This document shows positions 17,496 to 62,277 of a stretch of DNA of 64,000 nucleotides, piece after piece. The DNA is from Escherichia coli (GTDB lineage Bacteria; Pseudomonadota; Gammaproteobacteria; Enterobacterales; Enterobacteriaceae). A program made the translations under genes and the position numbers. Under the pieces are notes generated by a model. That model had not been told where the DNA came from and did no database searches. It saw nothing but the letters and a program-made list of their open reading frames with translations. The DNA is taken from the NCBI RefSeq assembly GCF_050920415.1, contig NZ_CP169309.1. One strand, 5' to 3'. Positions within the stretch are counted from its first letter, which is position 1; each line of letters opens with the position of its first letter.

Positions 17496-17513
17496 TGAGA
17501 GTAAGAACCTGTC

Positions 17514-17550
17514 TGAATATCAAACAGACAGGTTCTTTATTTAGCATGAG
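17514..17550 (+). terminator. intrinsic terminator of kdgR
   Basis: 12-bp stem AGAACCTGTCTG / CAGACAGGTTCT followed by T-rich tract. Confidence 0.75.
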
Positions 17551-37055: not shown

Positions 37056-38741
37056 TTGAAGAAGGTTTGGCTTAACCGTTATCCCGCGGACGTTCCGACG
37101 GAGATCAACCCTGACCGTTATCAATCTCTGGTAGATATGTTTGAGCAGTCGGTCGCGCGCTACGCCGATCAACCCGCGTTTGTGAATATGGGGGAGGTGA
37201 TGACCTTCCGCAAACTGGAAGAACGCAGTCGCGCGTTTGCCGCTTATTTGCAACAAGGGTTGGGACTGAAGAAAGGCGATCGCGTTGCGTTGATGATGCC
37301 TAATTTATTGCAATATCCGGTGGCGCTGTTTGGCATTTTGCGTGCCGGGATGATTGTCGTAAACGTTAACCCGTTGTATACCCCGCGTGAACTTGAGCAT
37401 CAGCTTAACGATAGCGGCGCATCGGCGATTGTTATCGTGTCTAACTTTGCCCACACTCTGGAAAAAGTGGTTGATAAAACCGCCGTTCAGCACGTAATTC
37501 TGACCCGTATGGGCGATCAGCTATCTACGGCAAAAGGCACGGTAGTCAATTTCGTTGTTAAATACATCAAGCGTCTGGTGCCGAAATACCATCTGCCAGA
37601 TGCCATCTCATTTCGTAGCGCCCTGCACAACGGCTACCGGATGCAGTACGTCAAACCCGAACTGGTGCCGGAAGATTTAGCTTTCCTGCAATACACCGGC
37701 GGTACCACTGGTGTGGCGAAAGGCGCGATGCTGACTCACCGCAATATGCTGGCGAACCTGGAACAGGTTAACGCGACTTATGGGCCGCTGTTGCATCCGG
37801 GCAAAGAGCTGGTGGTGACGGCGCTGCCGCTGTATCACATTTTTGCACTGACCATTAACTGCCTGCTGTTTATTGAACTGGGTGGGCAGAACTTGCTTAT
37901 CACTAACCCGCGCGATATTCCGGGGTTGGTAAAAGAGTTAGCGAAATATCCGTTTACCGCGATAACCGGCGTTAACACCTTGTTCAATGCGTTGCTGAAC
38001 AATAAAGAGTTCCAGCAGCTGGATTTCTCCAGTCTGCATCTTTCTGCAGGCGGTGGTATGCCTGTTCAACAAGTGGTGGCTGAACGTTGGGTGAAACTGA
38101 CCGGACAGTATCTGCTGGAAGGTTATGGCCTGACCGAGTGTGCGCCGCTGGTCAGCGTTAACCCGTATGATATTGATTATCATAGTGGTAGCATCGGTTT
38201 GCCGGTGCCGTCGACGGAAGCCAAACTGGTGGATGATGATGATAACGAAGTACCACCGGGTCAACCGGGTGAGCTTTGTGTCAAAGGACCGCAGGTGATG
38301 CTGGGCTACTGGCAGCGTCCGGATGCCACTGATGAAATCATCAAAAACGGTTGGCTACACACTGGCGACATTGCCGTAATGGACGAAGAAGGTTTCTTAC
38401 GCATCGTTGATCGCAAAAAAGACATGATTCTGGTTTCCGGTTTTAACGTCTATCCCAACGAGATTGAAGATGTCGTCATGCAGCATCCTGGCGTACAGGA
38501 AGTCGCGGCTGTTGGCGTACCTTCCGGCTCAAGTGGTGAAGCGGTGAAAATCTTCGTTGTGAAAAAAGATCCATCGCTTACCGAAGAGTCACTGGTGACT
38601 TTTTGCCGCCGTCAGCTCACGGGCTACAAAGTACCGAAGCTGGTGGAGTTTCGTGATGAGTTACCGAAATCTAACGTCGGAAAAATTTTGCGACGAGAAT
38701 TACGTGACGAAGCGCGCGGCAAAGTGGACAATAAAGCCTGA
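37056..38741 (+). CDS. fadD: long-chain fatty acid-CoA ligase
   Basis: ORF 36990..38741; known TTG start at 37056 giving (M)[15 protein letters not shown]..., 561 aa; AMP-binding motif [16 protein letters not shown]. Confidence 0.95.
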
Positions 38742-38760
38742 GCGTTAAGTCAGTCGTCAG

Positions 38761-38787
38761 ACGCCGGTTAATCCGGCGTTTTTTTTG
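38761..38787 (+). terminator. intrinsic terminator of fadD
   Basis: stem ACGCCGG / CCGGCGT, loop TTAAT, followed by TTTTTTTT. Confidence 0.85.
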
Positions 38788-38810: not shown

Positions 38811-39938
38811 TTGAATTACCAAATGATTACCACGGACGATGCGCTGGCTTCTTTGTGTGAAGCTGTCCGTGCCTTTCCGGCGATAGCCCTGGATACTGAA
38901 TTTGTTCGTACGCGCACCTATTACCCGCAGCTGGGTCTAATTCAACTTTTCGATGGCGAGCATCTGGCGCTAATTGATCCTCTCGTGATCACCGACTGGT
39001 CACCGCTGAAAGCGATCCTGCGCGATCCGTCCATCACAAAATTTCTCCATGCAGGCAGTGAAGATCTGGAAGTGTTCCTCAATGTCTTTGGCGAATTACC
39101 ACAACCCCTGATTGACACGCAAATCCTTGCTGCCTTCTGCGGACGCCCGATGTCATGGGGTTTTGCTTCCATGGTGGAAGAGTATTCCGGCGTTACGCTG
39201 GACAAGAGTGAATCGCGCACCGACTGGCTGGCCAGACCGCTGACTGAACGTCAGTGTGAATACGCAGCGGCGGATGTCTGGTATCTGTTACCGATCACCG
39301 CAAAGCTTATGGTAGAAACGGAGGCCTCCGGCTGGCTACCTGCGGCGCTGGATGAATGCCGCCTGATGCAAATGCGTCGTCAGGAAGTCGTTGCGCCGGA
39401 AGATGCCTGGCGTGATATCACCAATGCCTGGCAGTTACGCACACGCCAACTGGCCTGTCTGCAACTGTTAGCCGATTGGCGACTGCGTAAGGCGCGGGAG
39501 CGCGATCTGGCGGTGAACTTTGTCGTGCGTGAAGAGCATTTGTGGTCGGTAGCGCGTTATATGCCGGGAAGTTTAGGCGAACTGGACAGCCTGGGCTTAT
39601 CCGGTAGCGAAATCCGCTTTCACGGTAAAACGCTGCTGGCGCTGGTGGAAAAAGCGCAGACATTGCCGGAAGAGGCCTTACCGCAGCCGATGCTTAACCT
39701 GATGGACATGCCGGGTTATCGTAAAGCGTTTAAAGCGATTAAGTCGCTGATTACTGACGTGAGCGAAACACACAAGATCAGCGTCGAATTGCTGGCATCG
39801 CGTCGGCAAATCAACCAGCTGCTGAACTGGCACTGGAAACTGAAACCGCAGAACAATTTGCCGGAGCTGATTTCCGGCTGGCGTGGTGAGCTGATGGCGG
39901 AAGCATTACACAATTTATTGCAGGAATATCCACAGTAA
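38811..39938 (+). CDS. rnd: ribonuclease D
   Basis: ORF 375 aa; codon at 38811 is TTG (known UUG start of RNase D); DEDDy exonuclease plus HRDC domains. Confidence 0.95.
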   Translation: MNYQMITTDDALASLCEAVRAFPAIALDTEFVRTRTYYPQLGLIQLFDGEHLALIDPLVITDWSPLKAILRDPSITKFLHAGSEDLEVFLNVFGELPQPLIDTQILAAFCGRPMSWGFASMVEEYSGVTLDKSESRTDWLARPLTERQCEYAAADVWYLLPITAKLMVETEASGWLPAALDECRLMQMRRQEVVAPEDAWRDITNAWQLRTRQLACLQLLADWRLRKARERDLAVNFVVREEHLWSVARYMPGSLGELDSLGLSGSEIRFHGKTLLALVEKAQTLPEEALPQPMLNLMDMPGYRKAFKAIKSLITDVSETHKISVELLASRRQINQLLNWHWKLKPQNNLPELISGWRGELMAEALHNLLQEYPQ

Positions 39939-39944
39939 AATCTT

Positions 39945-39987
39945 CCGAAGCCGGACTGGGCGCGCTCAGCGCCACATCCGGCTTCGG
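39945..39987. repeat. REP-like palindromic hairpin between rnd and yeaX
   Basis: 11-bp perfect inverted repeat CCGAAGCCGGA...TCCGGCTTCGG with GC-rich 21-nt loop; no clear T-run. Confidence 0.5.
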
Positions 39988-39991
39988 CAAA

Positions 39992-40957
39992 CTACAAATC
40001 CAACACCAGGCGTTTACCCTTCGCGCGTGAACAACAGATCAACATACTTTGCTGGCTGGCACGCTCTTCATCGCTAAAATACTGATCCCGATGGTCAGCT
40101 TCACCTTCCAGTATTGCCGTTTCGCAGGTTCCGCATACCCCTTCACGACATAAACATTCCACTTTCGCTGCTTTATTATTTTCAATAACCTGCAAAATAG
40201 TCATCTCTTCCGGCACCACAAACTCTTTACCGGAACGGGCAAGCACCAGCGTAAATGCATCGCCGGTTTTGTCTTCGATAGCAAATTGCTCAAAGTGCAG
40301 CGTATCGGTGACGATGTCCAGACGCCCAGCTTCACTTCTTACCGCCTCATTTAGCGCCTCGGGGCCACAGGTATAAACATGTGTGCCAGGTTCGATATCC
40401 GCCAATAATCGCGCTAATTCCAGTCGTGTTCCGGTTGATGAATGATGCAAATGGACTTTCTCGGCCTGCGGATGCTGGACTAGCTCATCACGAAATGCGC
40501 AACTTTCTGGATTTCGCGAGCAGTAATGTAACTGCCAGTCGACGTCGCTGTATTGCAACTCTGCCATGTGCGACAGGAAAGGGGTGATACCAATACCGCC
40601 CGCGATAAACAGATGCTTTCTGGCCGAGGGAATTAGCGCAAACAGGTTATTCGGCGTTGAAATCGTTAACCGATCGCCAGCCTTCACTTTCTGATGTAAA
40701 AAACGCGAACCACCGCGCGAATTTTCTTCCAGTCGAACGGCAATCTGATAACGAGACGTATCGAGTGGCGAACTCAGCAGTGAGTACGCATTGCTGTACT
40801 GGTTATCACCATCGGCCATCTGCACAATGATGTGACTTCCGCCGTTGAACGCAGGCAGCGGTTTGCCCTCAGTTGCCACCAGCGTGAAGCGTTTCACCTG
40901 TTCGGTAAGCGGTTCAACCTGGCTCACCTGTACTTCAAACATTTGGTAGTTTGACAT
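39992..40957 (-). CDS. yeaX: carnitine monooxygenase reductase subunit (FMN/2Fe-2S oxidoreductase)
   Basis: ORF 321 aa; plant-type ferredoxin Cys motif CREGVCGTCE near C-terminus. Confidence 0.9.
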   Translation of the reverse strand: MSNYQMFEVQVSQVEPLTEQVKRFTLVATEGKPLPAFNGGSHIIVQMADGDNQYSNAYSLLSSPLDTSRYQIAVRLEENSRGGSRFLHQKVKAGDRLTISTPNNLFALIPSARKHLFIAGGIGITPFLSHMAELQYSDVDWQLHYCSRNPESCAFRDELVQHPQAEKVHLHHSSTGTRLELARLLADIEPGTHVYTCGPEALNEAVRSEAGRLDIVTDTLHFEQFAIEDKTGDAFTLVLARSGKEFVVPEEMTILQVIENNKAAKVECLCREGVCGTCETAILEGEADHRDQYFSDEERASQQSMLICCSRAKGKRLVLDL

Positions 40958-58082: not shown

Positions 58083-58182
58083 CTACATTTGCCAACTGTT
58101 TGCTACGCCTGTGTTGCCGCTTCTCTGGCCCACGGTTCGCTGTCGTTGTAGGCCCGGTAGCATGCGTACCGGGCCATGGTTG

Positions 58183-62252: not shown

Positions 62253-62277
62253 GTGCCGGATGCATCGCACCCGGCAC
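62253..62277. repeat. palindromic hairpin (possible bidirectional terminator or degenerate REP) between yeaE and yeaD
   Basis: GTGCCGG...CCGGCAC inverted repeat with 11-nt loop; left arm resembles GCCGGATGC of REP consensus. Confidence 0.4.

Follow-up and report, generated by a model that had tools for sequence, protein, structure and literature searches.

The palindrome between the convergent genes rnd and yeaX of Escherichia coli is not a current REP: most likely a REP relic, with a probable role in protecting the rnd message

The convergent genes rnd and yeaX are separated by a gap of 53 bp in the 64,000-nt stretch of DNA analysed here (the window), and this gap is filled by one palindrome. 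The question raised by this locus is what kind of element the palindrome is, a REP, a transcription terminator or something else, and what it might do at the 3' ends of the two genes. The window was recognized as E. coli by a 601-bp query around the site, which matched strain MFDS1022581 with 100% identity and almost all complete E. coli genomes with 95-99%. The features of the site are as follows, in coordinates of the window.

38811..39938, plus strand: coding sequence of rnd (RNase D), with a TTG start; named as in E. coli records.
39936-39938, plus strand: rnd stop codon TAA; the hairpin begins 6 nt further on.
39937..39944, minus strand: tail behind the hairpin in the yeaX direction, AAGAUUUU; by direct reading a weak U-run, displaced from the stem and overlapping the stop codon of rnd.
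39945..39987, no strand: the whole palindrome, 43 bp, in the 3' UTRs of both convergent genes; from inverted-repeat search, folding and comparison with REPs.
39945..39955, plus strand: left arm CCGAAGCCGGA; its outer CCGAA is specific to E. coli, orthologues having GTAAG or CTGA.
Within 39945..39955, plus strand: core of the left arm, AGCCGGAC, invariant in Escherichia.
39956..39976, plus strand: inner part, with an irregular zone, an inner stem TGGGCGC/GCGCC-CA and a 5-nt loop GCTCA.
39977..39987, plus strand: right arm TCCGGCTTCGG, with a common polymorphism, C39985T (TTTGG, about 1,430 genomes).
39988..40265, plus strand: C-rich, G-poor stretch, a candidate rut/Rho region by base composition, antisense to the 3' end of yeaX.
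39992..40957, minus strand: coding sequence of yeaX (carnitine monooxygenase reductase subunit); named as in E. coli records.
39994-39992, minus strand: yeaX stop codon, 4 nt ahead of the hairpin on that strand.

Annotations of the rnd start differ: the K-12 annotation uses the TTG codon at 38811 (375 aa), and PGAP annotation of other E. coli genomes begins 12 nt downstream (1,116 nt, 371 aa). Upstream of the TTG start lies the fadD terminator (38700-38785; hairpin 38759-38781 followed by T8), which matched Rfam sroD (RF00370) with 115 bits and has published Term-seq 3' ends at MG1655 positions 1888018 and 1888020. Its T-run ends about 22 nt ahead of the rnd start codon.

Direct reading of positions 39945-39987 gave CCGAAGCCGGA-ctgggcgcgctcagcgccaca-TCCGGCTTCGG, i.e. 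two arms of 11 bp without a mismatch and a 21-nt spacer between them, in which GGCGC (39959-39963) pairs with GCGCC (39969-39973). This is exactly the structure described in the original prediction, which had been made from the sequence of the window. The repeat search reported the same palindrome with arms of 19 nt, 84% complementary, and a loop of 5 nt; it was the longest among the 27 inverted repeats of the window, and many of the other long ones were terminators of the A-run/hairpin/T-run form. RNA folding, which had been proposed as a check of the prediction, yielded about -34 to -36 kcal/mol: the 53-nt spacer RNA folded with -34.4 kcal/mol on the plus strand (z-score -5.8) and -35.5 kcal/mol on the minus strand (z-score -7.0), and none of 200 shuffled sequences folded equally well. 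In the predicted fold C39956 is unpaired and A39974 is bulged, and these two positions make up the irregular zone.

Sensitive BLAST searches with the 53-nt spacer located it in 5,423 of 5,426 complete E. coli genomes, at a median of one place per genome. An occasional second place proved to be the palindrome matching itself on the opposite strand of the same locus, so that the palindrome is single copy; beyond these self-matches no paralogue was found in the E. coli genomes, and the window likewise holds one copy. The search for further copies, by which REP family membership was to be recognized, thus returned none. Three major alleles were distinguished. The allele of K-12 and of the window had 2,019 exact matches among the complete E. 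coli genomes. The TTTGG allele (C39985T) occurred in approximately 1,430 genomes, and three of four sampled one-mismatch matches carried the substitution; a G.U pair is retained in the plus-strand RNA and an A.C mismatch arises in the minus-strand RNA, with folds of -32.3 and -30.9 kcal/mol, respectively. The B2-type allele (1,306 exact matches) has a 7-nt deletion, CGCCACA (39970-39976), which leaves perfect 14-bp arms, CCGAAGCCGGACTG/CAGTCCGGCTTCGG. All three alleles retained a strong hairpin in folding (-29 to -34 kcal/mol). The hairpin also still stands beside rnd in about 1,050 E. coli genomes, including ST131, in which yeaX through part of dmlA has been deleted. Missing from these genomes are yeaX, yeaW and yeaV together with part of dmlA/dmlR, with a junction about 20 nt into the 3' end of yeaX (window position ~40010-40015 onward), and fragments of tartrate dehydrogenase and LysR pseudogenes are left behind.

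REPs of E. coli are defined as extragenic, palindromic, short, consensus-sharing and multi-copy elements (PMC12306157), and TnpA-REP activity requires a GTAG tag and a bulge in the stem, perfect stems abolishing the activity (PMC8266576). Reference REPs were taken from 200 kb of MG1655; a fifth 50-kb block, overlapping the window, had none. The y-type REP of MG1655 reads GCCGGATGCGGCGTGAACGCCTTATCCGGCCTAC, and it is the minus strand of the palindrome, GCCGGATGTGGCG...CCAGTCCGGCTTCG, that resembles this consensus, the plus strand having the orientation of the GTAG side. By direct reading, 26 of the 34 positions of the y-REP consensus were matched, including GCCGGA...CGCC.CATCCGGC. Like REPs, the palindrome is GC-rich and imperfect and lies extragenically at gene 3' ends, within the 53-bp gap; published DirectRNA-seq coverage crosses it on the rnd strand. 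The unpaired C and bulged A of the K-12-type allele occupy the place where REPs have their AA/GC bulge; in the B2 allele this place has become part of a perfect 14-bp stem. On the other hand, the palindrome occurs at one place per genome, has CGAA instead of GTAG, is without a partner REP and has arms of 11 (or 14) perfect bp that extend beyond the REP stem, together with a longer loop (43 nt versus 35). In profile searches it was the top y-REP match of the window, yet with 6.9 bits (E 2.3), or 7.7 bits (E 0.97) with an iterated HMM, both in 264 kb, it scored far under true REPs (15-43 bits). A regular expression for canonical y, z1 and z2 REPs matched nowhere in the 64-kb window, and Rfam gave no match at the palindrome, the only real match nearby being sroD. 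The palindrome is thus not a current member of the REP family and, having failed the copy-number and tag comparisons and scored low against the profile, should not be filed as a REP. The RefSeq record of MG1655 used here lists no REP as a repeat_region feature, even at malE-malF, so that missing annotation between rnd and yeaX is uninformative; sroD is unlisted as well. A strict REP expression gave no match in the window versus 17 in four other 50-kb blocks of MG1655, so that the distribution of REPs is very patchy.

Descent from a REP is a different matter. The likeness of the window allele alone was not significant (E of about 1-2 in 264 kb), and the argument for ancestry leans on the orthologues. 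In a divergent Escherichia, strain E69, the minus strand of the orthologous site reads GCCGGATGCGGCGCTGGTTGCGCCTTGTCCGGCTTAC, which is a full-length y-REP match of 19.4 bits (E 3.9e-5). At the position of the tag, the orthologues of E69 and E. albertii have GTAA and are in this respect closer still to a REP, while others have CTGA. In Citrobacter and Enterobacter, moreover, the site is occupied by true REPs or BIMEs. Sequence comparison therefore indicates that the palindrome is most likely a decayed REP: a y-type REP appears to have inserted here in an Escherichia ancestor and to have decayed later, and the present palindrome is presumably no longer mobilisable. The designation "REP-type" of the original prediction accordingly fails as a statement of membership and holds as one of likely descent. 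The site would offer a natural example of REP decay, in which loss of GTAG was followed by perfecting of the palindrome, apparently through templated mutation, while the stem was conserved.

With regard to termination, the plus-strand stem is followed by CAAACUACAAAU, in which direct reading found no U-run; the tail on the rnd strand is CAAACUAC. On the minus strand the stem is followed by AAGAUUUUAC, i.e. a gap of 3 nt and then four U. The absence of a T-run that had been claimed for the palindrome is therefore correct for the rnd strand and incorrect for the yeaX strand. A consensus terminator scan called the hairpin on neither strand, TERMITe had no entries matching it, and the locus was absent from the SMRT-Cappable-seq data. 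The curated Term-seq data of Adams et al. 2021 (PMC7815308), obtained in three conditions, hold no 3' end between MG1655 positions 1886800 and 1886899 on either strand, an absence that carries limited weight at the low rnd coverage of 56 reads per 800 nt. The same study mapped a Rho termination region at MG1655 1886672 on the minus strand, which is the rnd strand, antisense to yeaX, with a Rho score of 5.03 (p 9.1e-8). Without bicyclomycin 56 reads were counted upstream and 22 downstream, and with bicyclomycin 45 upstream and 89 downstream (PMC7815308). These published data show that read-through downstream of the hairpin is under Rho-dependent control. The peak of the Rho score corresponds to approximately position 40130 of the window, about 140 nt past the hairpin, the termination point being coarse in a map built on 800-nt windows. 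The peak falls within the C-rich stretch of approximately 280 nt that starts directly after the hairpin, where the C/G ratio on the rnd strand is 1.6-3.8, compared with a median of 0.95 and a 95th percentile of 1.67 in the window. A GC-rich hairpin at a gene end does resemble a canonical intrinsic terminator, and the same site is occupied by true terminators with A-run, hairpin and T-run in Klebsiella, Kosakonia and Kluyvera. The palindrome differs from these: its hairpin has no U-rich tract next to it on the rnd strand, on the yeaX strand there is just a displaced U4, and no precise 3' end has been mapped to it. The view that it is not a classical terminator is borne out by the missing U-tract on the rnd strand, the uncalled scan, the lack of a Term-seq end and the Rho region about 140 nt downstream.

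The 3' end of rnd was compared at 80 rnd loci from other Enterobacteriaceae. In the great majority a hairpin stood right after rnd, and these hairpins were non-homologous. Citrobacter strains with yeaX had REP-like elements in the opposite orientation, Enterobacter had paired REPs, and C. amalonaticus and Kluyvera georgiana had REPs or BIMEs of the E. coli type. Klebsiella, Kosakonia and other Kluyvera had canonical bidirectional terminators (AAAAAA-hairpin-TTTTTT). Depending on the genus, one and the same site is thus filled by a REP or by a canonical terminator. With unrelated hairpins after rnd across genera, the rnd 3' end seems to require some hairpin, supplied by different elements.

Within Escherichia, the core arms AGCCGGAC/TCCGGCTT, eight positions per arm, were identical at 16 of 16 positions in five divergent lineages, in which third-codon identity of rnd was 0.72-0.90 and identity of the rest of the spacer 0.54-0.86. 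The outer stem differs between lineages, with pairing kept in a shifted register (CCGAA/TTCGG versus CTGA/TCAG). A column-wise count in an alignment of nine Escherichia alleles found no pair changed on both sides, so that covariation neither supports nor refutes an RNA structure. The invariance of the core arms could alternatively reflect maintenance of the palindrome at the DNA level. Two changes have made the palindrome more perfect, an adjacent GT->CG change in the left arm of E. coli and the 7-nt deletion, which is not flanked by direct repeats and makes the right arm, CAGTCCGG, the exact complement of the left arm, CCGGACTG. Template-switch mutation at quasipalindromes is known in E. coli (PMC7202029); both changes look like mutations of this kind and would be hard to ascribe to slippage. 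In other lineages of Escherichia the rnd stop codon is followed by the base of the hairpin at a distance of about 2-7 nt, and in other genera this distance varies widely, according to a best-hairpin scan of the 80 loci that chose over-long windows and is of qualitative use only. In Escherichia sp. MOD1-EC7003 (locus L050, 3625-3650) the rnd stop codon is TAC rather than TAA, and the reading frame continues for 7 more codons through the left arm, ending at a TGA; there the right arm, too, is degraded (TTTGCC), and yeaX is absent. When metagenomes were scanned with the core-arm pattern, 120 stretches were returned; nearly all were unrelated hairpins of organisms likewise unrelated, only a single one was the rnd locus, and the pattern was too unspecific.

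Stable stem-loops without a U-tract and with rut sites just downstream have been described by Dar and Sorek 2018 (PMC6061677) as a shield of Rho-terminated transcripts, in which they keep PNPase and RNase II away from the trimmed 3' end. The rnd hairpin resembles this class in being very stable and U-less, in having a C-rich stretch next to it and in having Rho-dependent termination beyond it, the latter according to the published bicyclomycin data at their coarse resolution. It differs in that a steady-state 3' end right after the hairpin was absent from the Term-seq tables examined. On balance, the palindrome is probably a single-copy, immobile relic of a y-type REP that now acts as an RNA stem-loop protecting the Rho-terminated rnd message and makes a poor terminator, where both the REP ancestry and the role as an exonuclease barrier are what we infer from the above. 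After a y-type REP had inserted downstream of rnd in an Escherichia ancestor, the relic would have lost its GTAG tag and its arms would have become more perfectly complementary. RNA polymerase coming from rnd would read through the hairpin, since this has no U-tract; Rho would load on the untranslated C-rich RNA just past it, and transcription would be brought to a stop some 100-250 nt further on, antisense to yeaX. The stem-loop would then block 3'-to-5' exonucleases, and the rnd message would end at the hairpin and be shielded by it. On the opposite strand the hairpin would cap the yeaX message, and the weak U-run (AAGAUUUU) may add some intrinsic termination. Counting against the protective role, the predicted steady-state 3' end of rnd at the hairpin was not seen in three growth conditions, which low expression of rnd may explain. 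The palindrome is in any case an ordinary, unannotated element of known kinds, REP-like by descent rather than by membership and not a classical terminator; for annotation, this very stable but so far unlisted hairpin can be entered as the degenerate relic of a REP that probably protects a Rho-terminated mRNA as a stem-loop, rather than as an active repeat or a terminator.

Several other readings were weighed against this one. The palindrome might be a dead REP without any present function, kept because it is harmless and because replication template switching corrects quasipalindromes towards perfect ones, a view to which we give a minor but real chance. A single-copy palindrome without GTAG, at which no 3' end has been mapped, would be expected of such a relic, and so would the lack of column-wise compensatory pairs, the drift of loop and outer stem at or above the neutral rate and the templated appearance of the 7-nt deletion and of GT->CG, by a mechanism known in E. 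coli (PMC7202029). However, the core arms were invariant at all 16 positions in five lineages in which neutral sites were 72-90% identical, and every sampled genus retains a strong hairpin after rnd despite unrelated sequences, which argues that a hairpin is needed there. A function confined to DNA, with an active REP serving as a substrate of TnpA-REP or as a BIME-like site for gyrase, IHF or Pol I, is highly improbable. The overall likeness to REPs and the irregular zone at the bulge position of the K-12-type allele point in this direction; yet GTAG, crucial for cleavage by TnpA-REP, is replaced by CGAA, the bulge is gone in the B2 allele, where a perfect stem would abolish activity (PMC8266576), and the element stands alone without a second, inverted REP and so is not a BIME. 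The gyrase or IHF role that had been suggested for the palindrome found no support, such roles belonging to BIMEs, in which REPs are paired; for want of a partner REP, the palindrome was rejected both as a BIME and as a gyrase or IHF site. A small RNA or small ORF was rejected as well, the gap being only 53 nt.

A bidirectional terminator is unlikely, though still worth reckoning with: the hairpin and AAGAUUUU could form a weak intrinsic terminator for yeaX, or the hairpin could be the pause element of a collision-type terminator. This would suit two convergent genes with a single hairpin filling the 53-bp gap and four U past the stem on the yeaX strand, and canonical bidirectional terminators do stand at this site in Klebsiella, Kosakonia and Kluyvera. 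Bidirectional terminators of convergent E. coli gene pairs, in which the stem-loop positions collisions of RNA polymerase, are moreover unlike intrinsic ones (Wang et al., bioRxiv 10.1101/2022.10.23.513370), and the palindrome shares with those of Ju et al. 2019, to the extent that they are described by Wang et al. 2022, the single hairpin in a short gap. The same description has the class as Rho-independent (bioRxiv 10.1101/2022.10.23.513370), whereas the rnd strand is under Rho-dependent control downstream, and the stop is leaky, with a coverage of 22 downstream versus 56 upstream even without bicyclomycin. In addition, Term-seq shows no end at the hairpin, the U-run stands 3 nt off the stem and was not called by the scan, and the hairpin is kept in the approximately 1,050 genomes that lack yeaX and hence a convergent partner. 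The idea of a bidirectional terminator partly overlaps with that of a protective stem-loop, and both the Rho dependence and the leaky stop speak against it. Rather unlikely, too, is a brake on translation termination, in which the terminating ribosome would have to melt the base of the hairpin. According to Liang, Rudd and Deutscher 2015, as summarised in PMC12306157, REP hairpins less than 16 nt from a stop codon stall ribosomes, and the gene upstream is expressed at a lower level; the distances read directly from the sequence, 6 nt for rnd and 4 nt for yeaX, lie within this range, and in other lineages of Escherichia, too, about 2-7 nt separate the base of the hairpin from the rnd stop codon. 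Against such a brake stand the widely varying distance in other genera and the locus L050, in which the stop codon has been lost and the reading frame enters the left arm. More improbable than these is an extended proposal, according to which a dead REP was exapted and its arms were perfected by template switching into a dual 3'-end device close to two stop codons (6 nt and 4 nt), the three major alleles setting different levels of RNase D and/or YeaX across phylogroups via mRNA stability or ribosome stalling.

Besides the protective stem-loop proposed for rnd, the window contains other hairpins of related appearance. A smaller, similar element had been noted at 62253-62277, and a hairpin is indeed present there (GTGCCGG...CCGGCAC, 7-bp stem). 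It is of a similar kind, U-less and between the convergent genes yeaE and yeaD, but it is not a copy of the palindrome between rnd and yeaX. It was also weaker (-21 to -22 kcal/mol, z-score about -3.4), and it begins REP-like (TGCCGGATGC) without giving a significant profile match. Published Term-seq 3' ends of yeaE lie 19-24 nt past it (MG1655 1864735 and 1864740). After yeaG, at 58148-58175 on the minus strand, a REP-like hairpin with a CTAC tail was observed, GGCCCGGTACGCATGCTACCGGGCCTAC, with a Term-seq 3' end just beyond; compared with MG1655 it shows two differences (A to G and T to C), which may turn an inner A-T pair into G-C. At 17503-17537, directly after a stop codon and apparently at the 3' end of kdgR, there is an inverted repeat with perfect arms of 13 bp, AAGAACCTGTCTG/CAGACAGGTTCTT, whose loop has 9 nt and which an AT-rich tail follows.
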